A stretch of DNA of 64,000 nt from Candidatus Omnitrophota bacterium (GCA_016782425.1 JADHYN010000001.1:655-64654), one strand, 5' to 3'. Positions 8,779-63,615 are shown, numbered from the stretch's first letter. Notes: generated by a model not told the origin, from the letters alone. Made by a program: numbers and translations.

Positions 8779-8812
8779 AGCAGTAGGGGAGGCTTAAGCC
8801 TCCCCTACTGCT
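8779..8812 (-). terminator. perfect 15-bp stem hairpin (aGCAGTAGGGGAGGC ttaa GCCTCCCCTACTGCt) overlapping the maf stop codon
   Basis: I see the inverted repeat directly. A near-identical element recurs at 47934-47975. The U-tract on the minus strand is weak, so it may be a REP-like element rather than a strong terminator. Confidence 0.45.
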
Positions 8813-47157: not shown

Positions 47158-47880
47158 CTAATTGATGTTTTTGAAAATGGGAATATTTTTTCGTTTATGC
47201 TCTGATTTCTTGATCATTTCCTGGACCATGGCGAGTTTGGACTTGTCAATTTTTTCAGTATTGTTTTTTTCAAGGGCAAGTATTATTTCATCGAGTTCTT
47301 TGTATGTTATGCCCATTTCCCCTTCGTCAGTCTGGCCTTCCCAGAGTCCGGCTGACGGCGCGCGATTTATTACATCATCCGGCACACCAAGTTCTGCGGC
47401 AAGCTTGCGCACCTCACTTTTTACGAGATCCCCCAACGGAAGAATATCAGAACCGCCGTCACCGTATTTAGTAAAATATCCGACGGAAATTTCACTTTTA
47501 TTACCTGTCCCGGCGACAAGATAATTCAAACTGTTGGCAAAACAGTAAAGCATCGTCATTCGAAGACGCGGTTTCAAATTTGACCTGGCTATTTTTTTTG
47601 CCTCCGAGTTGGTTTTTAGAAATTCGTCGTAGATTTTATCAAGTGAGATTGTTTTTGTTTTTATGCCGGAGACTTTCGTTACCATTTTCGCGTATCGAAC
47701 GTCATCGGCACTACTCTGGCAAGGCAATATCAGCGCAAGTGCGTCTTCGCCCATGGCTTTTTTAGCTAAACACGCGACAACAGCAGAATCGAGCCCCCCG
47801 CTCAGGCCCAGCACAATACCAACCTTTTCGGCTTTCTTGACTTCGTCTTTTATCCAGTCAGAGATTTTATATGATAACAT
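47158..47880 (-). CDS. nadE: NH3-dependent NAD+ synthetase
   Basis: The PP-loop is GLSGGLDSAV. The 240-aa length and motifs are typical of single-domain NadE. Confidence 0.85.
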   Translation of the reverse strand: MLSYKISDWIKDEVKKAEKVGIVLGLSGGLDSAVVACLAKKAMGEDALALILPCQSSADDVRYAKMVTKVSGIKTKTISLDKIYDEFLKTNSEAKKIARSNLKPRLRMTMLYCFANSLNYLVAGTGNKSEISVGYFTKYGDGGSDILPLGDLVKSEVRKLAAELGVPDDVINRAPSAGLWEGQTDEGEMGITYKELDEIILALEKNNTEKIDKSKLAMVQEMIKKSEHKRKNIPIFKNIN

Positions 47881-47933: not shown

Positions 47934-47975
47934 AAAAGCAGTAGGCGAGACTTAAGCCTCGCCTACTGCTTTTTT
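47934..47975 (-). terminator. Rho-independent terminator hairpin: AAAA-GCAGTAGGCGAGaC-ttaa-GcCTCGCCTACTGC-TTTTTT
   Basis: The stem-loop has U/A tracts on both sides. It lies just 3' of the HupE-like permease stop (47977) on the minus strand. It is a sequence relative of the hairpin at 8779-8812. Confidence 0.6.
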
Positions 47976-47976
47976 G

Positions 47977-48687
47977 TTATAATCCCAGAAACTGAATCGC
48001 AATGCCGGAAAGGCATATTGTCGCACCGGCAAGGGCATGGCTGTAACGCTCGAGTTTTCCCAATGGTACTATTTTTATACCTAAAGAAAGCAATATTACT
48101 ATACTCATCATAGTGGCAACTGTTGCAGCGCCAAAAGTCAGTGTTACGCCAATAAGGCCAGCTATGCTTTTCTTGGCAGCCGGATACATGAGAATAGGTA
48201 TCAACGGTTCGCAGGGCCCCAGAACGAAAATAGTAAAAAGGATCCAAGGCGTAATATTGCTTTTTGCCTCTTTATGCGCATGGACATGCTCATATTTGTG
48301 CGCGTGGTCATGGTCGTGATTTTCTCCGTCGAGATGTGCATGCACGTGAGCGTGGGGTTTGTTTTTTATGGCCTGGTGAATACCCCATACAAAATATGCA
48401 AATCCAAAACCGATAAAGGCCCAGGCAGCTATGTTACCTCTAAACGCCTCAAAGGCCTCCAATTTCATAATAGCTATGCCAAAAGCAATGCCAATAAAGC
48501 CCAATACTACCGAGCTCATTATGTGCCCTATTCCGCAGAGAAAAGTAATAAATATCGTTTTGGGTAAAGCCCATTTGCGCGCCTTGCTCATTACTATGAA
48601 CGGCAGGTAATGGTCCGGCCCGAAAACCGTATGAAAAAACCCTATCGACGCTGCGGTTGTATATAAAATTATTAATTCTTTGTTCAT
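47977..48687 (-). CDS. HupE/UreJ-like (or NicO-like) nickel/cobalt transporter with His-rich loop
   Basis: The N-terminal FHTVFGPDHYLPFIVM resembles the HupE/UreJ H-x4-G-x-DH motif. The central loop is HAHVHAHLDGENHDHDHAHKYEHVHAHKE. I place the start at the ATG at 48687 (MNKEL), preceded by an AAGGAGG RBS. The ORF-track upstream extension is unlikely. Confidence 0.5.
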   Translation of the reverse strand: MNKELIILYTTAASIGFFHTVFGPDHYLPFIVMSKARKWALPKTIFITFLCGIGHIMSSVVLGFIGIAFGIAIMKLEAFEAFRGNIAAWAFIGFGFAYFVWGIHQAIKNKPHAHVHAHLDGENHDHDHAHKYEHVHAHKEAKSNITPWILFTIFVLGPCEPLIPILMYPAAKKSIAGLIGVTLTFGAATVATMMSIVILLSLGIKIVPLGKLERYSHALAGATICLSGIAIQFLGL

Positions 48688-48914
48688 GTCGCCTCCTTTA
48701 ATGAGACCTTGAGTTATTAAAAATTTCAAAGAAATTTTTCATAACTCAATCTTCTCTGAACTTCTTCCCCGAAGGGTCGAATTAAACCCCGCCCTTTTGG
48801 TAAACGTATTTTTTTGTCTTAATAAACTATTCTTCATTTGCAAAGTGTTATCGTAATTTTTCGTTTTTATCCTTGCCAAAAGGGCGGGGTAAATTCGCAG
48901 ACGGCCTTATGCCT
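48688..48914 (-). promoter_or_regulatory. long (~225-nt) structured 5' leader of the nickel-permease gene, candidate riboswitch or attenuator
   Basis: A 14-bp perfect long-range pairing, CCCCGCCCTTTTGG (48787-48800) with CCAAAAGGGCGGGG (48876-48889), encloses ~75 nt. Directly upstream of the RBS there is also a 17-bp hairpin, GAGUUAUGAAAAAUUUC-UUU-GAAAUUUUUAAUAACUC, with one mismatch. I did not recognise a known riboswitch class. Confidence 0.3.
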
Positions 48915-48950
48915 ATGATTTACGGAAACCTGCAGATTTCCGTAAATCAT
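48915..48950. promoter_or_regulatory. 36-bp near-perfect palindrome ATGATTTACGGAAA-cctgcaga-TTTCCGTAAATCAT (candidate NikR or other operator, or porin terminator)
   Basis: I see this directly, 8 nt after the porin stop and ~230 nt upstream of the permease start. It has no U-tract, so an operator is at least as likely as a terminator. The TTACG-N16-CGTAA core echoes the 6-N16-6 layout of the E. coli NikR box. Confidence 0.35.
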
Positions 48951-48958
48951 CTGCTCAT

Positions 48959-50350
48959 TTAAAAATCAACCTGCGCCCTGGTTCCGTAAACAAATATCGT
49001 GTCATTCTCCCCCTGGTATGAGTGGCTCACGCCATAAGGGTTCCATATAAGCTGAAAGTCCGGGCTTATGGCCAGCCATTTAAATAGCTGGCATTTGTAA
49101 TAAATTTCAATATGCCCTTCTCCGGCGCCAAAATCGCTGGGAGAGGCGTCTTTCCACGCCTTACTCGGGAAAATCTGACCTATGGCGCAGGCGAGAACGT
49201 CGTCATCCCTCTTCCAATATTTACCCGCAACCTGGCCGCCGGTGGACCAGGACCATTCGAGCGTCGGATTCGTGGTAACATCGACCATTGTTATGTCACC
49301 GGGAAGAACGTCAGGCCTTTGCCACCCGAATCGTCCGAATAATCCAAACGCGTCCGTTACCATCTGGTCAAAGCTGAATCCAAAGCCATAGTTTAAGATC
49401 TTGCCTTTATCGCTGGATTCATCGTCCTTCGCGAGCTTTTCGTGATTACGGTCGTTCATCCAGAAGTAAGTCCTGTAATTTCCGTCAAACTGCTCGGTGT
49501 CTATGCCAAGCGCCTCGATCTCCGACGGCCTGAAATTAAACTGAAATGAGTAGAAGTTTTTATCAAACACGTCGTCATAATCAGCGTCGCCTGAAAAATA
49601 GCTAAGTTCTGTTTGGATAAAGCTTATGGGTTCAAATGCAAGAATAAGGTCCATTCCAAGGGCATTTCCCGGAGGAAATTCCATAACAGGAGAATTCCTG
49701 AACATATGGGCAAGGAACTGGGTTTTCTCGTCATTAGCGTATTCGTTCTGGTCAACGCGATCCCCGCAATCCATTTTACCCAGAGTAAAGGCGATTTGCT
49801 TATCAAGCGCGAACTGCGTATAAAACCATTCTGCGAACTCGACGCGCGAACCAGTATCAGCGGCTTCGCGGTTTACATTACTGAATACCTCAAGCTCGTT
49901 CTCGATCGTATCGTTTTCTCCACCCTCAAGATGTAAATACGCGAATCCCCAATCCTCAAACTCTTTGGCTATTTCAACATCAGCCGAGTATGAGGCGTCA
50001 AATATGCTGTTTTCTCCCGCGCCGGCGTTATTAGCGTCAGGGGTGCCTTGCGCGACAAACGTAATACCCGCTCCTATATTAAGCCCTGCCGGCTCGACTC
50101 TCATTCCCTCGCCGGGCTTATATTCTATGAGAGATTTTTTCACTTCGTCCCTTACGTGTTCAAGCGAAATCGCTTTCATATCCTGTTTTACCATTTTTTT
50201 TTCAAGTTCATCAACGCGCATTTTTAGAGACTGTATCTCTGTCAAAAGTTCCGCGGTTGTAGGCGCTGCAGGCCCTGCCGCAAATACAGCCGGGGTTATC
50301 ATGCTTATCAAAATAAATAAAGCCGCCAGTCCTGTGATTTTCCTAAGCAT
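48959..50350 (-). CDS. outer-membrane porin, probably OprB-like carbohydrate-selective family, with N-terminal coiled coil
   Basis: It has a signal peptide and a coiled-coil segment (LLTEIQSLKMRVDELEKKMVKQDM). The remainder is rich in alternating aromatic/hydrophilic beta-strand patterns, with a C-terminal Phe (…RAQVDF). Confidence 0.5.
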   Translation of the reverse strand: MLRKITGLAALFILISMITPAVFAAGPAAPTTAELLTEIQSLKMRVDELEKKMVKQDMKAISLEHVRDEVKKSLIEYKPGEGMRVEPAGLNIGAGITFVAQGTPDANNAGAGENSIFDASYSADVEIAKEFEDWGFAYLHLEGGENDTIENELEVFSNVNREAADTGSRVEFAEWFYTQFALDKQIAFTLGKMDCGDRVDQNEYANDEKTQFLAHMFRNSPVMEFPPGNALGMDLILAFEPISFIQTELSYFSGDADYDDVFDKNFYSFQFNFRPSEIEALGIDTEQFDGNYRTYFWMNDRNHEKLAKDDESSDKGKILNYGFGFSFDQMVTDAFGLFGRFGWQRPDVLPGDITMVDVTTNPTLEWSWSTGGQVAGKYWKRDDDVLACAIGQIFPSKAWKDASPSDFGAGEGHIEIYYKCQLFKWLAISPDFQLIWNPYGVSHSYQGENDTIFVYGTRAQVDF

Positions 50351-50363
50351 ACCTTCCTCCTGC

Positions 50364-50780
50364 CTATGGTAGCTCTTTAGCAGTCGTTGCTGCCGTAAGG
50401 GCCCCGTATTTTACTCCTTTTATTGACTTTAGCTTATCAGCTAACTCTTCTATTTTCTTTGGATTTCCTTTTACCACTATGGTTTCCAGGCAATTATGAT
50501 GGTCCAAATGTACGTGCTGATTCGAAATAACCATGCCGTGGAAATCATGCTGCATGTCAGTGAGCTTATTTACGAGTTCCCGCCTGTGGTGGTCATAAAC
50601 AAGTACTATCGCGCCGGCGACTTCGCGGCCCGAGCGCCACTCGCTTTTTACAAGCTCACCGCGTATGAGCGCGCGTATCGCGTCCGAACGGTTCTGGTAT
50701 TTTTTCGACTTAGCGTACCTATCAAACTTCGCAAGAAGCTTATCCTCAAGCGCGATGCTGAATCTCACAAGTTTCGCCAT
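50364..50780 (-). CDS. nikR: nickel-responsive transcriptional regulator NikR
   Basis: The ribbon-helix-helix N-terminus is RFSIALEDKLLAKFD...RSDAIRALI. The C-terminal nickel site reads HHRRELVNKLTDMQHDFHGMVISNQHVHLDHHNCLE, the H..H..H.H...C pattern of NikR. Confidence 0.85.
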   Translation of the reverse strand: MAKLVRFSIALEDKLLAKFDRYAKSKKYQNRSDAIRALIRGELVKSEWRSGREVAGAIVLVYDHHRRELVNKLTDMQHDFHGMVISNQHVHLDHHNCLETIVVKGNPKKIEELADKLKSIKGVKYGALTAATTAKELP

Positions 50781-50794
50781 GATTGTCCTTTCGT

Positions 50795-50817
50795 GTTACG
50801 ATTTTTATAATCGTAAC
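50795..50817. promoter_or_regulatory. perfect palindrome GTTACGATT-TTTAT-AATCGTAAC 15-37 nt upstream of the nikR start (candidate autoregulatory NikR operator overlapping a TATAAA -10-like element)
   Basis: I see this directly. Its position relative to nikR is what one expects for an RHH-repressor operator. Confidence 0.4.
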
Positions 50818-50864
50818 ATTACATCGCTACTCTGTCAAGTATTTTGTGAGTGTCGACGCCTAAT

Positions 50865-51521
50865 TTAGTGACAGGTTGGGCAGTGAGGGTGGGAGCTTTC
50901 TTTGACGAAAAGAAGAGGAAAAACGATATCGCTTACACAGCATGGCACCCAGACAGCTATAAAGAGGAAAACAAATACGCCTGCGTAGGAAATCCACGTA
51001 AGCTTCTCGCCTATTGCCATCAGGATATGAAACAAAGACGCCCAGGTACTTAAAAGTACGTGTCCGGCGTGAGGAAATTTTGTCCTGGGCCTGAAATAGG
51101 CTATCGCTATCCCTATTATAGCAAGGGGGTTTACGAGCCACCATTTCTCAATAAAACCTATATGCATGTGTCTGTGTGGCATATTAAGAAGCGTTTCCCC
51201 CAGGTAAGGAATAAGGGAATCGCTTAAAGTCGCTATCCCGATAGCGCCGACATAGCCTATGACTAAGAGCGCCCAAATATTACATTTACTTTTAAGACCG
51301 CCGCATTTGTGAATATTATACATCGACGCCGTAACAAGCGCACTTAATAGAACGTGCAGGGGGTGAAACACATAAAACATATCATATGAGGTTCTTTCCG
51401 GCAGGTTCTTACAAAAAAACATAAGCGCTATGCCTGTCAGCGCCCCGAAGATAGTGAAGGGTGCGTGGTGCTTGAGTTCTGTTAATATTTTTTTAAGCAT
51501 ACTTTGTTTCTTTGAATTCAC
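50865..51521 (-). CDS. integral membrane protein with His/Cys-rich motifs (HRHMH, HAGH, C-terminal HPHCPTCH); function unknown, possibly metal-related
   Basis: It is 218 aa with about 5-6 TM helices. The metal-ligand-like clusters and its position next to nikR suggest a metal role. Confidence 0.35.
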   Translation of the reverse strand: MNSKKQSMLKKILTELKHHAPFTIFGALTGIALMFFCKNLPERTSYDMFYVFHPLHVLLSALVTASMYNIHKCGGLKSKCNIWALLVIGYVGAIGIATLSDSLIPYLGETLLNMPHRHMHIGFIEKWWLVNPLAIIGIAIAYFRPRTKFPHAGHVLLSTWASLFHILMAIGEKLTWISYAGVFVFLFIAVWVPCCVSDIVFPLLFVKESSHPHCPTCH

Positions 51522-51585: not shown

Positions 51586-52185
51586 TTAATTAGCGTAACT
51601 CCATCGCATTTTGATATCCAGGATAGGAGTACCATTAACTGCATCAAGCCCTTCAACGAAAAGAACCGCCCCTTTTACCTCCGCCAGCCTGACGTCTTGT
51701 ATGCCAATTCTTGACAGTCTGTAAGGCGTGCGTGAAGCGAATACCCCCACTTCTTTTCCGTCTAAACCTCTTTTAAAGATTGATGCCACGGAATTTGCCT
51801 CGTGTAAATAGTAAACAATCGTAATGTATTCTTCTTCTTCTAATTTATATAAGAAAGGTTTTTGTGATGCAAATAGCTTTATGCGCGATGTTCCGTCCTT
51901 GCCACGGGTATCAAAACCTTTACCGGCACGCTTTAGTTTATTATAAACAATGCCTATGGGATAAATTTTAAACGGTTTTGCCTTGCTGTATAAACAGGCG
52001 GGACAAACCGGTTTGCCGTCAACAACAACATTATTGACGGGCGCCATTTTCCTGTTGCACCTAGAACACCTGCTATTTTTCATTGTTTTCTTCCTGAAAT
52101 CACCACGAATCCCCCTTCGCCGAAGCCTCTTTTCGGTTTTTCTACTGAATTGATTTTTCCCGGCAGCTCGAAAATAGTCTGCCAA
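51586..52185 (-). CDS. TsaA/YaeB-like (TrmO-family) SAM-binding beta-barrel domain protein with N-terminal Cys4 zinc ribbon
   Basis: The C-terminal SRTPYRLSRIGIQDVRL...GLDAVNGTPILDIK matches the TsaA-like UPF0066 signature. The N-terminus is CSRCNRK...CPAC. The start may be the ATG at 52086 (MKNSRCSRC), which avoids overlap. Confidence 0.5.
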   Translation of the reverse strand: MADYFRAAGKNQFSRKTEKRLRRRGIRGDFRKKTMKNSRCSRCNRKMAPVNNVVVDGKPVCPACLYSKAKPFKIYPIGIVYNKLKRAGKGFDTRGKDGTSRIKLFASQKPFLYKLEEEEYITIVYYLHEANSVASIFKRGLDGKEVGVFASRTPYRLSRIGIQDVRLAEVKGAVLFVEGLDAVNGTPILDIKMRWSYAN

Positions 52186-53677: not shown

Positions 53678-54955
53678 CTACTTAACTTGCGACTCTTCAA
53701 TTGAATGTGTTGGAGCAGGAACTTTTTCAAGTTGCCCGTTTCGATATTTATTCACGGTTTCAGCTACAGTTAAATCCTCTGCAATTTTGTATATATCTAC
53801 AAAGTTTTCCTTAAGCATATAAAATGATAATTCTCCGATTTTAGCGGTAAACAGCATATCCAGCTTATATTTTATTACCGCTTTAATAACTTTAATGCCT
53901 ATGTGTTTTTTCTCATTAAGAAATTCGTTGTAATAAAAATCCTCTATTTCTGCATCTTTATCGGTTAATCTTAAGATAATATAATACGGAGCTCGTCCAA
54001 AATGGGCGTGAACCTTTGAATCCAAACCGTTCATATCCTTTACCGGAATAATCACCGATTCAACATTTCGTTTTGCAGGTTCAAGATGTATAAATACGGA
54101 TTCAATATCCTCATAGCTTTTGGTTATCAAATCTTCTGTTTTATCCGCAAGCTCATGCGCGCGGTATAATGGAAGTGTAGGCGAAGTCTCGATTTTGCAT
54201 TCTACCATCTTGAACGGCCCTGATTGCCGAATTTTGACCTCACTTGTTCCTTTAACCCCGTATATTTCATTTATCTTTTTTTCAATCGCGAATTGCAATT
54301 CGGGGCCTAGATTAGCGTCCATTAACGCCAATAAAGACATCCATACGTTTTCAATGCCTAATTTGAAAATCAAAAGCGAAATTAAAACTATAATAACTCC
54401 TTCTATATGGGGAATTCTTAAAAAAGCCAACCATATCCCTGCCAAAACAACCATTGAAGTAATAATATCCAGAAATGATTCCCGGGCATTAGCAATAAGG
54501 GATTGAGAGTTACTTTCTCGGCCTGCTGCTTGTTCTTTTCTGGCTATAAAAAAAGCCGCTATAGCTGATATTCCACTCACAACGAGAGGCAAAGCAGGGA
54601 ATTCTTCAACTTGGGTTATGTGGAAAAGCTTATAATATCCTTCTTTTAACATCCCTATGCCAGCCCATATTATGAATATTCCAATTAAAAAACTAACCAG
54701 AGTTTCTGCTTTATATAACCCATAAGGAAATCTGGCGCTTTTTTTCTTTCCCGCTAACCAAAGACCAAAACCGGAAGCAAAAATTGCCAAAAGATCTGCG
54801 GCACTGTGAAACGCATCAGCCAATAATATTTTTGAATTAAATAGGTACCCTACGGTGCCTTTGGCAATTGCTAGAAACAAAGTAAAAAAGGCAGCTATAA
54901 ACGCTACTTTTTGGCCCCTTTTTAATTTCTCCATCCTACCTTTGGCAATCCCCAT
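53678..54955 (-). CDS. cation diffusion facilitator (CDF) transporter fused to a C-terminal NifX/NifB-like (dinitrogenase FeMo-cofactor-binding) domain
   Basis: The N-terminal ~300 aa have six TM helices with CDF signatures (LLADAFHSAADLL; H/D metal sites). The C-terminal VIIPVKDMNGLDSKVHAHFGRAPYYIIL matches the conserved HFGxAP start of the NifX/NafY/NifB-C domain. Confidence 0.65.
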   Translation of the reverse strand: MGIAKGRMEKLKRGQKVAFIAAFFTLFLAIAKGTVGYLFNSKILLADAFHSAADLLAIFASGFGLWLAGKKKSARFPYGLYKAETLVSFLIGIFIIWAGIGMLKEGYYKLFHITQVEEFPALPLVVSGISAIAAFFIARKEQAAGRESNSQSLIANARESFLDIITSMVVLAGIWLAFLRIPHIEGVIIVLISLLIFKLGIENVWMSLLALMDANLGPELQFAIEKKINEIYGVKGTSEVKIRQSGPFKMVECKIETSPTLPLYRAHELADKTEDLITKSYEDIESVFIHLEPAKRNVESVIIPVKDMNGLDSKVHAHFGRAPYYIILRLTDKDAEIEDFYYNEFLNEKKHIGIKVIKAVIKYKLDMLFTAKIGELSFYMLKENFVDIYKIAEDLTVAETVNKYRNGQLEKVPAPTHSIEESQVK

Positions 54956-58448: not shown

Positions 58449-59363
58449 CTAGGGCTTATCAATTCCTGTTTGTAACTTTTCCCATGCCTCGTTTATTTCC
58501 TTTTTGGCCTTTCCGCCAGCGTATTCTGTTATTGTCTTCCCTTTAACCATCGCCTCTACCACAGATTTATCGAAAGGGATTTTGCCTACTAAACCGATAT
58601 TATTTACCTTTGAGTATTCCTCTATTTTTTGCGTCATATCCGTATTAAGGTCGTACTTATTTACGATTAATTTCGCTAAAATACCAAAATGTTTGGCTAC
58701 ACTTATAACCCTATCCGCATCATGAAGCCCTGAAAGCGTCGGCTCTGTAACAACAATAGCACAGTCTATGCCTGAAAGAGACGCTATGACAGGACACCCT
58801 ATCCCGGGCGCGCCGTCTATGATTACGAGATCCGCTTTTTTTGCTTCGGCCAGTTCCTTTGCCTTTTGCCTAACAAGGCTTACAAGCTTCCCGGAATTTT
58901 CCTCCGCTATGCCGAGCTTGGCATGTACCATAGGGCCAAAACGTGTATTAGAGATAAACCATTCGCCTGAAATATTTTCTTCCATTTTTATGGCGCCTAC
59001 GGGACAAGCAAAACTGCAAAAAGCGCATCCTTCGCAGGAAACTCGGTCTACGGTAAAATCCTCGCTTACCTCGTTAGAAATGTCATTTCTAACGGGGCTA
59101 ATAGCATTGAAACGGCAAATTTCTATACATTTGCCGCATTGAACACATTTATTTTTATCTATGAAAGCCGTTTTACCGCTTCGAAATTCATATCGTTCTT
59201 TTATGTTAGGCTGCAACAATAAATGTAGGTCCGCCGCGTCCACATCGCAATCAGCCATTACTTTGTTTTTCGCAAGGGCGGCAAACGCTCCCGTAATTAC
59301 GGTTTTCCCTGTTCCGCCTTTTCCGCTTATTATTACGATTTGCTTCACTATAACCTTTCTCAC
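58449..59363 (-). CDS. MinD/ParA-superfamily P-loop ATPase with inserted 2x[4Fe-4S] ferredoxin domain
   Basis: The Walker A is ISGKGGTGKT. The inserted ferredoxin motifs are CVQCGKCIEIC and CEGCAFCSFACP. Confidence 0.8.
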   Translation of the reverse strand: MRKVIVKQIVIISGKGGTGKTVITGAFAALAKNKVMADCDVDAADLHLLLQPNIKERYEFRSGKTAFIDKNKCVQCGKCIEICRFNAISPVRNDISNEVSEDFTVDRVSCEGCAFCSFACPVGAIKMEENISGEWFISNTRFGPMVHAKLGIAEENSGKLVSLVRQKAKELAEAKKADLVIIDGAPGIGCPVIASLSGIDCAIVVTEPTLSGLHDADRVISVAKHFGILAKLIVNKYDLNTDMTQKIEEYSKVNNIGLVGKIPFDKSVVEAMVKGKTITEYAGGKAKKEINEAWEKLQTGIDKP

Positions 59364-60712
59364 ATTTTGTCTGACGCGTTTTGAGCCGCCAGCACAACCG
59401 GATACATTGTCGGAGCAGACGTCAAATATGGATGGGTTGCCATTTGCAATGTCTCCAGTTCCGTTACAGAAACTCTCTGCTGAATTGCCATGCCGATAAT
59501 GTTAATTATCTCTCCGGCGGATATACCTCCGACAACCTGGCCGCCCATTAAAATACCGGATTGTCTGGAAAAAATAAGCTTTACTCTCACTTTATTCGCT
59601 CCGGGAAGGCTTCCGGGATGCTTATCTATACTTTCCGTATTTCCCGAAACAATCTCAAACCCTTCTTTTTTAGCGCTTGTTTCCGTAAGTCCCGCAGAAC
59701 CTAAAACCAGGCCATCCACATAAGTCGAGTAAATCGCGATCGTTCCTTTGTTTTCACGCACAACTTTTAGCCGATAGAGGTTGGCTCCGGCAATTCTCGC
59801 TTCAGCTGTAGCGGTAGAAGCGAGCATAACAGGCGTATCTCTTCTTGTATAAAAATCTCGTTTCCCGGCGCAATCACCTACCGCGAAAATATCAGGATCA
59901 GCGGTACGCATGTATTCATCTACCCATATACCCTTGCCTCTCCCTAAATCCAAGCCTGCCTCAGTTGCCAAAGTTGTGTTAGGAACGGATCCTATTCCTA
60001 AAATAACACTGTCTATTCTTAACTCTTTCCCGTTGTCAAACCGCACACCTTTTATCTTATCATCCCCCAAAAATTCAACCACCTTAGTGCTGGTTAAAAG
60101 GGTAACGCCCCCTGACTTTAGCCTTTCTTCAACCAACAAAGAAAACTCATCATCAAAAGAATTCGCGAGCAAACGGGGAAGAACTTCGGCTAAATATACA
60201 TTAATGTCATTTATTTTTGAGATCTCATCAGCAAACTCAACGCCTATAAATCCGCCGCCAAGAATCAATACATTTTTCGCTTTTTTAAGTTTAGTTATAA
60301 TTGCTTTAAGATAATTCATGTCCTTATATACGGGGTAGATTCCTTCTTTCTCAATCCCGGCTATAGAAGGCTTAATTGGCATAGATCCCGGGGCAAGGAC
60401 AAGTTTCTCATATTCATATTCTTCACCGCTTTTAGCAGTTATTTTTTTTGCGCTACGATCCATCTTTACCGCTTCGTCAATAATAACTTCTATGTTATTC
60501 TTTTTAAGAGCGTCAAGTCCCAGCTTATTGTCATCAGGATTTTTAAGACTCCAGAACATATAGGGAATCCCGCACGGAATACAACCGTTAACTACATTTT
60601 TCATAACCACAACGTCTTTATCCGGATAATACCTTTTTGCCGTAATCGCGCTTACGAGCCCGGCCGGTCCTCCTCCGATAATAAGAACACCCACTTTTTT
60701 AACCATAAACAC
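59360..60712 (-). CDS. FAD-dependent pyridine nucleotide-disulfide oxidoreductase (CoA-disulfide reductase/NADH oxidase-like)
   Basis: The N-terminal FAD site is VLIIGGGPAGLVSA. A Cys pair sits in NGCIPCGIPY, and the second Rossmann motif is VLILGGGFIGVEFA. Confidence 0.75.
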   Translation of the reverse strand: MFMVKKVGVLIIGGGPAGLVSAITAKRYYPDKDVVVMKNVVNGCIPCGIPYMFWSLKNPDDNKLGLDALKKNNIEVIIDEAVKMDRSAKKITAKSGEEYEYEKLVLAPGSMPIKPSIAGIEKEGIYPVYKDMNYLKAIITKLKKAKNVLILGGGFIGVEFADEISKINDINVYLAEVLPRLLANSFDDEFSLLVEERLKSGGVTLLTSTKVVEFLGDDKIKGVRFDNGKELRIDSVILGIGSVPNTTLATEAGLDLGRGKGIWVDEYMRTADPDIFAVGDCAGKRDFYTRRDTPVMLASTATAEARIAGANLYRLKVVRENKGTIAIYSTYVDGLVLGSAGLTETSAKKEGFEIVSGNTESIDKHPGSLPGANKVRVKLIFSRQSGILMGGQVVGGISAGEIINIIGMAIQQRVSVTELETLQMATHPYLTSAPTMYPVVLAAQNASDKM

Positions 60713-60719
60713 CTTTCTT

Positions 60720-61103
60720 TTATGAAGATTCCAGCATTACACAGAGTCCGTAAATCACATCAATATTATTATCACGGCAAAATTTTATTGCGGTTTCACT
60801 TTCGGCTCCCGGTTGAAGCCAGACTCTTTTAATGGATTTTTTCCGGCATTCCTTTACTATTGTTTCAGTAACAGAAGGCGGGGTAACCACATTAACGACA
60901 TCGATATTAAAAGGGATATCGCTTATGCTTTTATAGCATTTTATCCCATCGACATCGCTAAGACGGGGGTTAACAGGAAAGGCCTCATACCCTTTTTTTA
61001 TTAAAGTTTTCAAAATCTTATACGCGTATTTAGCTTCATTTCTAAACGAGCCAACAATCGCAAACCTCTTTTGTTTTAAAAAATCTTTAATTAGGCTTTC
61101 CAT
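60720..61103 (-). CDS. CoA-binding domain protein (YccU/YneT-like)
   Basis: FAIVGSFRNEAKYAYKILKTL...GYEAFPVNP matches the CoA_binding_2 fold signature. I place the start at the ATG at 61103. Confidence 0.65.
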   Translation of the reverse strand: MESLIKDFLKQKRFAIVGSFRNEAKYAYKILKTLIKKGYEAFPVNPRLSDVDGIKCYKSISDIPFNIDVVNVVTPPSVTETIVKECRKKSIKRVWLQPGAESETAIKFCRDNNIDVIYGLCVMLESS

Positions 61104-61944
61104 CTTTAATTTTGTTAAAAAGCTCTTCAAAATCTTTTTTGTATTCGGGAAACGTTTTCACAATCGACTCACCTTTAGAATAGGCAACTGCTATCTCTTT
61201 CTTAAAAGGTATACGCATGAGAATAGGAATATTCTGTTCCTTGCAATATTTGTCTGTTTTCTCATCGCCTAAATCAGAACGGTTAATCACGACTCCGAAC
61301 CGAATCTTGAGTTTCCTCAAGACTTCTACCGCAAGGGTTAAATCATTTAACCCAAAGGGCGTCGGCTCGGTAACAAGCACACAAAAATCGCTTTTCTTTA
61401 TAGTCTCAACTACGGGGCATGACGTTCCGGGAGGGGCATCGATAATAACAGTGCGTGTTGGATTGAGATGTTTTTTGATTTCCCTTATAACGGGAGGCGC
61501 CATTGCTTCGCCTATATTCAATCGCCCGTGTATAAATTGTATAGACTCAACCGTGCCAATTTCAATTTCACCGATTTCTTTATTCACTTCCTTTATGGCG
61601 CTTTCAGGACAAAAATAAGAACAACTTCCGCAGCCATGGCAAAGGTTCGAAAAAACTAGAATGTTTCCCTTTTTGCCATCAGTTCCTCCTATTACGGCAA
61701 TGACATTGTAAGCGCATACCTCACGGCACCTGCCGCAATAGGTACACTTTTCCTCATCTATTTCCGGAATGGGAATATAAACTTTTTTTGTTTCTTTTAT
61801 CTTGGGTTTTAAAAAAATGTGGGCGTTTGGTTCTTCCGCGTCGCAATCCAAAAACTGCACTTCCTTATTTATAGAAAGCGCTAAATTGACCGCTATCGTA
61901 GTCTTACCTGTTCCGCCTTTCCCGCTTGCAACTGAAATAACCAT
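61087..61944 (-). CDS. MinD/ParA-superfamily P-loop ATPase with inserted 2x[4Fe-4S] ferredoxin domain (second copy)
   Basis: The Walker A is ASGKGGTGKTT. The ferredoxin motifs are CTYCGRCREVC and CHGCGSCSYFCP. Confidence 0.8.
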   Translation of the reverse strand: MVISVASGKGGTGKTTIAVNLALSINKEVQFLDCDAEEPNAHIFLKPKIKETKKVYIPIPEIDEEKCTYCGRCREVCAYNVIAVIGGTDGKKGNILVFSNLCHGCGSCSYFCPESAIKEVNKEIGEIEIGTVESIQFIHGRLNIGEAMAPPVIREIKKHLNPTRTVIIDAPPGTSCPVVETIKKSDFCVLVTEPTPFGLNDLTLAVEVLRKLKIRFGVVINRSDLGDEKTDKYCKEQNIPILMRIPFKKEIAVAYSKGESIVKTFPEYKKDFEELFNKIKDGKPN

Positions 61945-61948
61945 AATT

Positions 61949-62674
61949 TTATATAATCGGTTTATACGCTATAAACATTTCCTGAAATTTACTATTATAT
62001 TTTTCTGTTTTAAAGCCCTTTTCACATAAATATCTATGTATATCTTGCAGATTAAATTTAGCTGTTCTGTGACTCCTGCCCTCTTGGGCATGGATCTTAT
62101 TGAGTACCTCAAATCCATCCTTAGTGAAATCGCTTAGAACAATCTTTCCTTCAAAAGTAAGAACCCTTATAAACTCATCCATTACCTTAAAAGGGTTCTC
62201 GAAATGATGAACTGTATTTATTGATAAAATAATATCGAAGCTTTTATCATCAAAGCTTAAATGCTCGGCATTTTCAATCTTAAAATCAACGGTCTTTTCT
62301 AATCCGGCATATTTTAGATTTAGTTTTGCGATATTCTGTTCTTCTCTAGAGATGTCAACACTTGTAAACTGATATCCTTCTTTGGCAAGAATCAACGTAA
62401 AATGGCCTTTACCGGTCCCAACTTCAAGGATATCATCGAATAACGGCTCGGCCTTATCAAGAACGAATTCTCGTTCTTTGTCTATGTCGAATCCGTGACT
62501 TTGGTACAGCTTCTTACGCTCTAAATAACGTTTGTGGTTTTCTAAAACTTTTCTTTCCAAAATTAATCTTTCTAAGCCTTCGTCATTTTCGTCCCGCATT
62601 TCGGGCAATTTACCGAATAACAAGGCGCTCCCTGCTGATGCTGTAGTCTCTCGCCACAATTCGTACAAACACAA
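61949..62674 (-). CDS. class I SAM-dependent methyltransferase
   Basis: ILEVGTGKGHFTLIL is motif I. The N-terminus of the ORF-track model overlaps the small gene 62572..62805, so the true start is probably an internal ATG, for example 62599. Confidence 0.65.
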   Translation of the reverse strand: MCLYELWRETTASAGSALLFGKLPEMRDENDEGLERLILERKVLENHKRYLERKKLYQSHGFDIDKEREFVLDKAEPLFDDILEVGTGKGHFTLILAKEGYQFTSVDISREEQNIAKLNLKYAGLEKTVDFKIENAEHLSFDDKSFDIILSINTVHHFENPFKVMDEFIRVLTFEGKIVLSDFTKDGFEVLNKIHAQEGRSHRTAKFNLQDIHRYLCEKGFKTEKYNSKFQEMFIAYKPII

Positions 62675-62805
62675 TATCCGCCGGGTCCTGATCCCGGACG
62701 GTTTCCGCCCATGCGGCCTCTGCCGCCACCTCTACCCATGCCTCTACCTGTTCCCGGTCCTCCTCCTAAAGGTCCTGTTCCGTCTCCACCTGGCATTTTA
62801 CTCAC
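62572..62805 (-). CDS. DUF5320-like Gly/Arg-rich small protein, Cys-containing variant (CVCTNC ... CPKCG)
   Basis: MSKMPGGDGTGPLGGGPGTGRGMGRGGGRGRMGG... is followed by CVCTNCGER...CPKCGTKM. It is a paralogue of 54979..55212. Confidence 0.5.
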   Translation of the reverse strand: MSKMPGGDGTGPLGGGPGTGRGMGRGGGRGRMGGNRPGSGPGGYCVCTNCGERLQHQQGAPCYSVNCPKCGTKMTKA

Positions 62806-62820
62806 CTCCTATTTTGTTTC

Positions 62821-63195
62821 CTATTTTCTTGGCGGCATGCCAAATTTTGAATTCACGCTCGGCCCGCCTGTAGATTTAAGCCCACCTTTTTTGTATTTTT
62901 CAACAGCTTCTTTAACCGTACCGGAAACTCCGGTAATTACCTCTACACCGGCCGCTTGTAAAGTCTGAAACGCGTTAGGCCCGACATTTCCCGTAAGCAC
63001 GGTTTTCGCTTTTTTATCAGCAATAAGCTGCCCGGACTGGACTCCGGCTCCACCCATTGAGTCAATATTAGGATTTTTTACCACCTCGAGTTTCATAGTG
63101 TCGGTATCTACGACAATAAAATATTGACATCTACCAAAACGCGGATCAACTTTAGAATCCAGATTGTCACCTTCCGAAGTAATGCAAATTTTCAT
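62821..63195 (-). CDS. NifX/NifB-like dinitrogenase FeMo-cofactor biosynthesis domain protein
   Basis: [30 protein letters not shown]... matches the conserved start of the Nitro_FeMo-Co domain, with a glycine-rich tail. Confidence 0.8.
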
Positions 63196-63210
63196 ATCCT
63201 CCCCTTTCTT

Positions 63211-63615
63211 TTAATCATCGCAATCCTTTTCATTAGGATGGTCACACTCGGACTTCTCTATGCCATAGCCTTTTCCTGCGCCGGGCTTGCAAAGGCTTTC
63301 CCCACCCTCAAGTGTTCCTTTCAGAATTTTTTTTAAAACTTCGTCGATTTTTCCGCTTATGCCGACAATCGCTTTAATGTTAAGCTCTTCAAAAAATTGA
63401 GTTGCCCGCATTCCCATCCCCCCGGCTATTATAACATTTACTCCCTTTTCGTGCAAAAATTGGGGTATTGCACCCGGCTGATGGCCCGGATTTGGTACAA
63501 CCTCTTTTTTTATCAGCTTATTTTCACTAATATCTAAAATGGTGAACTCCGGACATCGCCCGAAGTGGGCAGATACATTGTCCCCGTCAGTTGATATAGC
63601 TATTTTCATAAGCAC
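63211..63615 (-). CDS. NifX/NifB-like dinitrogenase FeMo-cofactor biosynthesis domain protein with Cys/His-rich C-terminus
   Basis: KIAISTDGDNVSAHFGRCPEFTILD is the family signature. The C-terminus is ...GESLCKPGAGKGYGIEKSECDHPNEKDCDD. Confidence 0.8.
   Translation of the reverse strand: MLMKIAISTDGDNVSAHFGRCPEFTILDISENKLIKKEVVPNPGHQPGAIPQFLHEKGVNVIIAGGMGMRATQFFEELNIKAIVGISGKIDEVLKKILKGTLEGGESLCKPGAGKGYGIEKSECDHPNEKDCDD

Follow-up and report, generated by a model that had tools for sequence, protein, structure and literature searches.

To our knowledge, passage of nickel across the bacterial outer membrane is known only in Helicobacter, where it involves the TonB-dependent protein FrpB4 and possibly HopV. 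The Helicobacter outer-membrane proteins under the control of the nickel repressor NikR include the porin-like HopV and HopW, of which HopV has been implicated in nickel trafficking (PMC5385501). In delta-proteobacteria, the nik operons of Geobacter, Desulfuromonas and Desulfovibrio gave rise to a NikR-box consensus, GTGTTAC-[N13/14]-GTAACAC, and this operator precedes nik(MN)QO (PMC545781). A third point of reference is the permease UreH, which has six transmembrane helices (TMs), a His-rich loop between helices III and IV, and genes that co-localise with those of hydrogenases (PMC4284471). Here, we describe a locus that recalls each of these systems in a 64,000-nt stretch of DNA from Candidatus Omnitrophota bacterium (GCA_016782425.1 JADHYN010000001.1:655-64654), the whole of which is called the window below. 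Between positions 47,977 and 50,817, nikR is followed by genes for an OprB-family porin and a six-helix, His-rich permease; one palindrome (palindrome 1) lies in front of nikR and another (palindrome 2) between the porin and permease genes. The locus is probably a self-repressed nickel-uptake operon, with palindrome 1 as the predicted NikR operator and palindrome 2 outside the conserved regulatory logic. Every feature named in a preliminary description of the window is present where it had been placed, on the minus strand, and the core of the locus reads as follows.

50810-50838, minus strand: sigma-70-type promoter of the nikR operon (consensus scan)
50793-50819, no strand: NikR operator, which is palindrome 1 (box scan against the consensus)
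50364-50780, minus strand: nikR, 138 amino acids (Pfam and NCBIfam)
13 nt: gap from nikR to the porin gene
48959-50350, minus strand: OprB-family porin, 463 amino acids (Pfam OprB)
271 nt: gap from the porin stop codon to the permease ATG
47977-48687, minus strand: permease, 236 amino acids, six helices (Pfam DsbD_2 and homologue alignment)

The nikR product carries an RHH_1 domain (PF01402, E 1.2e-6) and an ACT-like NikR_C domain (PF08753, E 1e-33) according to Pfam, and it scores 180.6 bits against the NCBIfam NikR equivalog NF003381 (cut-off 105). Aligned with E. coli K-12 NikR and the NikR proteins of four other loci, its four high-affinity nickel ligands (H78, H89, H91 and C97) do not vary; in E. 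coli NikR, the high-affinity square-planar nickel site consists of His76', His87, His89 and Cys95. Upstream of the gene, palindrome 1 has a perfect core, GTTACGATT-N5-AATCGTAAC (50795-50817), 14 nt 5' of the nikR ATG. Read two bases wider on each side, it becomes GTGTTAC-N13-GTAACAT on the plus strand, 12 nt before the ATG, which agrees with the delta-proteobacterial consensus at 13 of 14 half-site positions and has a spacer of N13. This is the sole NikR-type box in the window, where shuffling gives an expectation of 0.05 matches at up to three mismatches; no further box was found there, including upstream of the permease gene and of TM211, a membrane-protein gene that adjoins the nikR promoter. 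The promoter itself consists of a -35 element TTGACA (50838-50833), a 17-nt spacer and a -10 element TACGAT (50815-50810) with TG upstream, resulting in 10 of 12 consensus matches besides the TG, and the box overlaps both the -10 element and the likely transcription start.

This overlap is conserved. Homologues of three proteins (permease, porin and TM211) served to gather loci with nikR (fetched relatives are labelled L and a number), and a box was considered credible at three mismatches or fewer, which gave 16 loci including the window. In the 15 further, independent loci (L009, L011, L023, L037, L043, L079, L088, L090-L094, L101, L104), the box lies 1-20 nt before the nikR start codon, with N13 in all. 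TTGACA stands 16-17 nt upstream of TAC(A/G)AT in 14 of the 16, the window included, the exceptions being L043, which has TTGATT, and L101, whose sequence begins too near the box. Because TTGACA sits at this distance, the left half-site GTG(C/T)TAC together with AAT can be read as an extended -10 element, TGnTACAAT, and this conserved fusion of promoter and operator therefore predicts steric repression by Ni-NikR. The preliminary description had offered palindrome 1 as a candidate for autoregulation, a proposal strengthened by its match to a known NikR box and by the position and spacing kept in the 15 further loci. Palindrome 1 is a predicted autoregulatory NikR operator of known kind, and the predicted regulation of the module is textbook. 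In L094, a small open reading frame (ORF; 1900-2066), which we take to resemble the YezD/DUF2292 family, lies between nikR and oprB and is preceded by a degenerate NikR-like site, GTAGCAC-N13-GTAATAC.

The porin matches OprB (PF04966) with an E-value of 3.8e-22 and 79.6 bits (cut-off 22.9), its residues 152-463 aligning to profile positions 44-372 of 372; this hidden Markov model match confirms OprB, which had been named as one possible family. The N-terminus has, by eye, signal-peptide-like and heptad-like segments. A metagenome scan with the porin as query found nikR directly upstream of the porin homologue in all six of six loci, and the same order occurs in L009, L094, L101 and L104. What follows the two genes differs between lineages. 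A permease of the window type comes next in the window, L009, L094, L101 and L102. In L088, L089, L091, L092 and L104-L107, the pair is followed by CbiM, PDGLE, CbiQ and an ATP-binding cassette (ABC) ATPase, a set that is a NikMNQO-type energy-coupling factor (ECF) importer. In L090 (2507-3100) and L093 (4887-5483), two small membrane proteins without a Pfam match (92 and 103 amino acids) take this place, and they may be another undescribed nickel-uptake component. Where measured (L088, L089, L091, L094, L101, L102 and L104), the gap between porin and importer genes is 9-37 nt. In this arrangement, nikR-oprB is the constant part and the importer downstream of it the variable one. Supported by its genomic linkage to nikR, the porin is presumed to be the nickel entry route across the outer membrane. 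We found no literature linking OprB porins to NikR; the closest parallels are the NikR-regulated outer-membrane proteins of Helicobacter, the OprB porin beside feoAB in Geobacter that is predicted to be under Fur (PMC545781), and the cyanobacterial porins with SLH/OprB domains that are reportedly treated in papers on iron uptake. The conserved nikR-OprB porin pair with swappable importers is modestly new. For environmental anaerobes, a porin that is co-transcribed with nikR and stays beside it while the importer swaps would be a simple, testable candidate for a nickel-dedicated porin.

Translation of the permease begins with the ATG at 48687, after AGGAGG, as in all homologues (the listed ORF spans 47977-48729). 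Between TM3 and TM4 it has a His-rich loop, HAHVHAHLDGENHDHDHAHKYEHVHAH; in the family alignment, the third and fourth hydrophobic segments enclose an invariant, periodic His loop, and the motifs HTxxGPDHYLP (TM1) and LGPCEPLIP (TM4) are conserved. Basic residues in the TM1-TM2 loop and on the flanks of the His loop suggest, by the positive-inside rule, that the loop is cytoplasmic. DsbD_2 (PF13386), presumably the family that InterPro labels 'UreH-like transmembrane domain', is the sole Pfam family above threshold (27 bits, cut-off 24.9). The Pfam models HupE_UreJ, HupE_UreJ_2 and NicO gave no match in 13 members of the permease family at E-values up to 10. Hence, of the 'His-rich HupE/UreJ-like permease' of the preliminary description, the His-rich permease downstream of nikR and the porin stands, while the family label does not, for lack of a HupE/UreJ profile match. 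Public annotation of the homologues is inconsistent, naming them either TauE/SafE or RcnA.

This family is very conserved and very widespread, with at least 594 relatives among contigs representing one genome per species. The best 80 (58-72% identity) come from Omnitrophota, Planctomycetota, Bacteroidota, Aminicenantes, Syntrophorhabdus, Kiritimatiellales, Clostridia and others. When the neighbouring ORFs of 86 loci were clustered, NikR was the commonest neighbour of the permease, followed by HypF, HypB, HypC, HypE, HypD, HypA and the OprB porin. In 6 loci, hypB ends where the permease begins. Further loci have hypA, C, D, E or F beside the permease, and L005, L023 and L099 have a hyp operon directly upstream; in some other Omnitrophota, the permease follows hycI-hypAFCDE. 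Of the 80 species loci, 21 have at least one neighbour of the NikR or Hyp type, a lower bound because many loci are short contigs. In the two-gene nikR-permease loci L023, L037 and L079, the permease shares with nikR a single promoter under predicted NikR control. No NikR box was found near permease genes without an adjoining nikR (e.g. L005).

Other proteins also recur beside the permease. Fusions of TrmO_N, FmdE and zinc-finger domains are encoded directly upstream of it in three MAG loci, two from Bacteroidota (L027, 5931-6968, and L068) and one from Armatimonadota (L014). A small cupin adjoins it in L005 (5603-5875), and one cupin cluster does so in five Planctomycetota loci (L049, L061, L065, L082 and L086), its representative in L065 having a His-rich tail, ...GGEHHHVHH. 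The small cupin may be a nickel-binding accessory protein.

The direction of transport has to be weighed against the family's likeness to RcnA. The permease could be an RcnA-like nickel/cobalt exporter or a His-loop metal buffer, the locus then combining outer-membrane uptake with efflux, an alternative we regard as unlikely. It shares with RcnA the 3+3 helix layout, the central His-rich loop and analogous motifs in TM1 (H..GPDH versus H..EPGH) and TM4 (GPCEP versus IPCP). The NCBIfam RcnA model NF007454 matches it weakly (E 9e-4), hhalign against E. coli RcnA gives 90% probability, over only 38 columns, JGI names some homologues RcnA, and a cation diffusion facilitator (CDF) exporter is nearby in 3 loci. 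Besides this likeness, several observations weigh against a NikR-controlled nickel importer. The AlphaFold2 model of the permease, which has six long helices, is poor, with a predicted local distance difference test (pLDDT) score of 61. About three quarters of the species loci have no nickel-related neighbour within the fetched DNA, and in the Omnitrophota loci L096 (172-2753) and L097 (2192-4708) the gene order is nifS-nifU-permease, the permease overlapping the nifU stop codon. In the window, NikR control of the permease is itself uncertain, because an insertion separates the gene from the NikR promoter and no box precedes it.

However, the match to RcnA reaches 18.5 bits against a cut-off of 195, and NicO is absent from the 13 family members at the same permissive E-value. 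In several phyla, the permease gene shares a promoter that has a NikR box over its -10 element, which predicts repression at high nickel, the opposite of what an exporter would need. In sister loci NikMNQO holds the same slot, and the permease adjoins hypB and hypA-F, with no RcnR/CsoR-type regulator among its recurrent neighbours. Import is favoured because the permease shares a NikR-occluded promoter in the two-gene nikR-permease loci, NikMNQO takes its place in the same slot and genes for nickel-insertion chaperones adjoin it. The exporter alternative, which had been raised in the preliminary description, is disfavoured by this genomic context, and we presume the permease to be a Ni(II) importer of UreH-type architecture. 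This context-based assignment of nickel import to a widespread, inconsistently annotated family is modestly new, and it suggests a nickel-import role for many proteins now annotated TauE/SafE or RcnA.

For this module, a role with Co, Fe or Zn in place of nickel is quite unlikely. OprB porins have been predicted or implicated in the uptake of iron, and one in Geobacter, beside feoAB, is predicted to be Fur-regulated (PMC545781); in addition, Co specificity has been predicted for one UreH member (PMC2667541). The window porin is matched weakly by the NCBIfam 'iron uptake porin' model, and the nifS-nifU-permease order may point to Fe-S assembly or to a non-nickel metal. Against these points, NikR is unambiguous, having all nickel ligands and a NikR box; beside the permease, the functional genes met most often are hypA and hypB, which serve nickel insertion, and other hyp genes; and no B12 riboswitch or Fur box was found.

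Between the porin and permease genes, the window differs from its relatives. The long spacer contains an insertion with three inverted repeats, as follows.

48697-48958, minus strand: lineage-specific insertion, 262 nt, 3' of the porin stop codon and 5' of the ribosome-binding site of the permease
48915-48950, no strand: palindrome 2, 36 bp (inverted-repeat search)
48786-48890, no strand: second inverted repeat, arms at 48786-48803 and 48873-48890
48709-48749, no strand: third inverted repeat, a 3-nt loop between A+T-rich arms of 19 nt

Compared with three related nikR-porin-permease loci, the 262 nt are absent from L102, L101 and L094, whose gaps between porin and permease are 9, 37 and 19 nt, and the porin and permease flanks of L102 align closely with those of the window. 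The insertion is identical in contigs of four samples; a search of the window and of about 100 fetched loci gave no other copy of it or of any of its arms. The source samples are ENA ERZ24794666, ERZ24794672 and ERZ24794676 and run ERR13325277, and the window belongs to ENA contig ERZ24794676 NODE_522. Palindrome 2 has 18-nt arms with one mismatch (94% complementary) and no spacer. Only 8 nt separate its start from the porin stop codon, and the permease ATG follows 227 nt downstream of it, close to the distance of about 230 nt first reported, and TTACG-N16-CGTAA is present within it.

Palindrome 2 had been proposed as a second operator, to which either NikR, in a different architecture, or a second regulator would bind. 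A near-perfect 36-bp palindrome that shares TTACG...CGTAA with palindrome 1 and stands upstream of a promoter-like site in the spacer would suit such a role, and TTACG-N9-20-CGTAA occurs 3 times in the window versus 0.85 expected. Even so, a genuine operator for the permease is very unlikely here. The sequence belongs to an insertion that the three relatives lack, and it is centred about 55 nt upstream of the -35 element of the only promoter-like site, which is not the position of a repressor. The NikR-type half-sites, GATTTAC/GTAAATC, have two mismatches each (4 of 14), and the NikR-box scan at up to three mismatches did not return them. Their spacing is N18 versus N13 in all 16 credible boxes, which would set the half-sites on opposite faces of the helix because it is 5 bp longer. 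Furthermore, 36 bp is long for an operator, and the palindrome starts directly behind a stop codon. As for the 'shared core, different spacing' noted earlier, TTACG...CGTAA does occur in both palindromes, but the pentamer falls partly within the half-site of the NikR box and partly within its variable, non-conserved spacer, and it is not what defines the consensus.

Read as RNA, the insertion folds into three large hairpins with a minimum free energy of -95.4 kcal/mol (z -7.9), and the hairpin of palindrome 2 alone reaches -25 kcal/mol (z -7.9). Palindrome 2 fits an ordinary hairpin pattern: of the eight long hairpins that the window contains (stems of 12 bp or more with no more than one mismatch), five follow a stop codon within 50 nt. 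At gathering thresholds, no Rfam family, the NiCo riboswitch included, was found in the window, and at E-values up to 10 the region 48650-49050 gave chance-level, miRNA-like matches only. Most likely, palindrome 2 acts as a 3' stem-loop by which the nikR-porin transcript is ended or stabilised. One point counts against termination of the usual kind: there is no U-run after palindrome 2 in AGGCAUAAGGCC and the terminator scan did not report it, so that, for want of a U-tract, it is not a canonical intrinsic terminator.

The second inverted repeat has 18-nt G+C-rich arms around a 69-nt A+T-rich loop, in which a promoter-like TTGGCA-18-TACGAT lies on the minus strand (48879-48850). An isolated NikR half-box, GATAACAC, stands beside its TACGAT, and the best reading as a full site, by eye, has 6 of 14 mismatches. 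The stretch that links this -10-like hexamer to the half-site, TTACGATAACAC (48850-48879, minus strand), resembles the nikR promoter TTACGAT...AACAC without its centre, a likeness that may be coincidence or a remnant. The third inverted repeat ends 8 nt before the permease ribosome-binding site. An integron attC site was considered for the 105-bp second repeat and dropped, as no flanking GTTRRRY core sites were seen by eye.

The main alternative for palindrome 2, and one compatible with the operon as we read it, is a neutral scar: the 262-nt spacer may be a functionless remnant of a mobile or palindromic element, or of a recombination that joined nikR-oprB to the permease. We give this a lesser but real chance. 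The spacer is lineage-specific, holds three unrelated long palindromes and has ends that resemble short inverted repeats, TAAATGAG ... CTCATTAA. Recombination in the region is indicated by the close relative L100, since it joins TM211 directly to the permease without nikR-oprB. However, the absence of a second copy means that no repeat family has been demonstrated, the sequence is the same in all four samples, and a spacer in the middle of an operon affects expression whether it is selected or not.

Taken together, the self-repressed nickel-uptake operon would work as follows. At high intracellular nickel, Ni-NikR would bind the 27-bp box GTGTTAC-N13-GTAACAt, and RNA polymerase would be blocked because the left half-site belongs to the extended -10 element. 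At low nickel, the promoter would fire, resulting in NikR and the OprB-family porin. The porin would pass Ni(II) across the outer membrane, the UreH-like six-helix permease would move it across the inner membrane, and the imported nickel would supply the maturation of [NiFe]-hydrogenase. Palindrome 2 would be the first of three hairpins in an insertion acquired by this lineage, and the promoter-like site inside the insertion may drive the permease separately, independent of NikR. This supports the original proposal of a NikR-linked nickel module in which the outer membrane has a porin, of the OprB family, and the inner membrane a secondary permease, as opposed to NikABCDE. Within the window, tblastn found no hyp genes, and no hydrogenase or carbon monoxide dehydrogenase families were found among the 16 window proteins scanned (of 62 ORFs).

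The genes on either side of this operon are oriented as it is: all 62 of 62 non-overlapping ORFs of at least 90 amino acids across the window (1-64000) lie on the minus strand, an extreme strand bias. The nearest neighbours are listed here.

51586-52047, minus strand: TrmO_N-domain protein with an N-terminal Cys4 ribbon, adjoining TM211 (domain match)
50865-51500, minus strand: TM211, a 211-amino-acid membrane protein, directly upstream of the nikR promoter
84 nt: gap from TM211 to nikR
47934-47973, no strand: intrinsic terminator 3' of the permease, a 19-bp stem followed by T-runs
47158-47880, minus strand: nadE (Pfam scan)

TM211 has no match in Pfam or NCBIfam. Its family comprises 460 clusters at 50% identity (E up to 1e-3), with H12, H46, H49, D94, H113, H144, H147, P186-C187 and D191 invariant or near-invariant. 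The AlphaFold2 model is confident and has six TM helices (pLDDT 93, predicted template modelling score 0.89), and Foldseek found no significant neighbour in the PDB (best E 0.34, TM-score at most 0.26 among the listed matches). In L104-L107, TM211 lies directly before nikR-oprB, which is followed by NikM-type genes (TM211 at 4001-4609 in L104). In L100, the order is trmO-TM211-permease without nikR-oprB, the TM211 stop and the permease start overlapping (TM211 at 887-1507). The L100 protein is identical to that of the window over about the first 160 residues, and its C-terminus reads ...KKDKAVA versus ...KESSHPHCPTCH in the window. From the two orders it follows that either nikR-oprB entered between TM211 and the permease, or L100 lost it by deletion. 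In L108, the neighbours of TM211 are unrelated to nickel. A role as accessory metal-transport component is possible, the link to nickel being one of adjacency in a few lineages only; the unannotated, His/Cys-rich TM211 family is itself modestly new.

A bolder generalisation can be put forward tentatively, as a speculation that is more probably wrong than right. The nikR-oprB pair might be a portable cassette of a sensor and a dedicated nickel porin that docks beside interchangeable importers, at least two of its partners being undescribed transporter types (TM211 and the pair of about 100 amino acids in L090/L093), and the DsbD_2-type permease might be a major unrecognised nickel importer of anaerobes.

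Further afield in the window, a CDF cation-efflux protein fused to a Nitro_FeMo-Co (NifX-like) domain is encoded at 53678-54955, and upstream of it (58449-63615) lie genes for two NifX-like proteins that stand alone and for two ATPases of the MinD/CbiA type that carry 4Fe-4S domains; this region is a metal-cofactor-handling cluster. The terminator-like hairpins at 8779-8812 and 47934-47973 have near-identical arms, GCAGTAGGsGAG ... CTCsCCTACTGC, which suggests that a terminator module is reused in the genome.

Stem-loops between cistrons or at 3' ends terminate or stabilise the upstream mRNA, as do the repetitive extragenic palindromic (REP) elements of the E. coli mal operons. Palindrome 2 is likewise a strong hairpin after a stop codon inside an operon, without a U-tract; unlike REP elements, it is present in single copy in the window and fetched loci and does not belong to a dispersed repeat family.

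Three families of permeases invite comparison. With E. coli RcnA, of the NicO family, the window permease shares its layout, the cytoplasmic His-rich central loop and the analogous TM1 and TM4 motifs; it differs in scoring below the RcnA and NicO thresholds, in being linked to NikR and hyp genes and not to RcnR, and in being predicted to be nickel-repressed, not nickel-induced. HupE/UreJ proteins are likewise small, six-helix secondary metal permeases of hydrogenase and urease clusters, and the TM1 motif HTxFGPDH resembles the HupE signature HPxxGxDH; unlike the window permease, HupE lacks a long central His loop. UreH/SodT (Bacillus sp. TB-90 UreH and cyanobacterial SodT), to which the permease is likened by description, share with it the six helices, the His loop between helices III and IV and the co-localisation with nickel genes, whereas linkage to NikR and an OprB porin sets the window permease apart from UreH as described.

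Like Helicobacter, the window pairs outer-membrane nickel entry, presumed in this case, with NikR, and barrels of the OprB family are used elsewhere for the uptake of cations. In contrast to Helicobacter, the barrel is OprB and not a Hop or TonB-dependent protein, and the porin is predicted to be co-transcribed with nikR. The NikR regulon of delta-proteobacteria (Geobacter, Desulfovibrio; PMC545781) has the same repressor family, the same operator consensus with N13 and a nickel repressor placed over a nickel importer, and NikMNQO-type genes, as found there, follow nikR-oprB in the sister loci. Unlike in that regulon, the box of the window is predicted to autoregulate nikR and is merged with an extended -10 element, the first structural gene encodes an OprB porin, and the presumed importer is a secondary permease instead of an ECF or ABC system.

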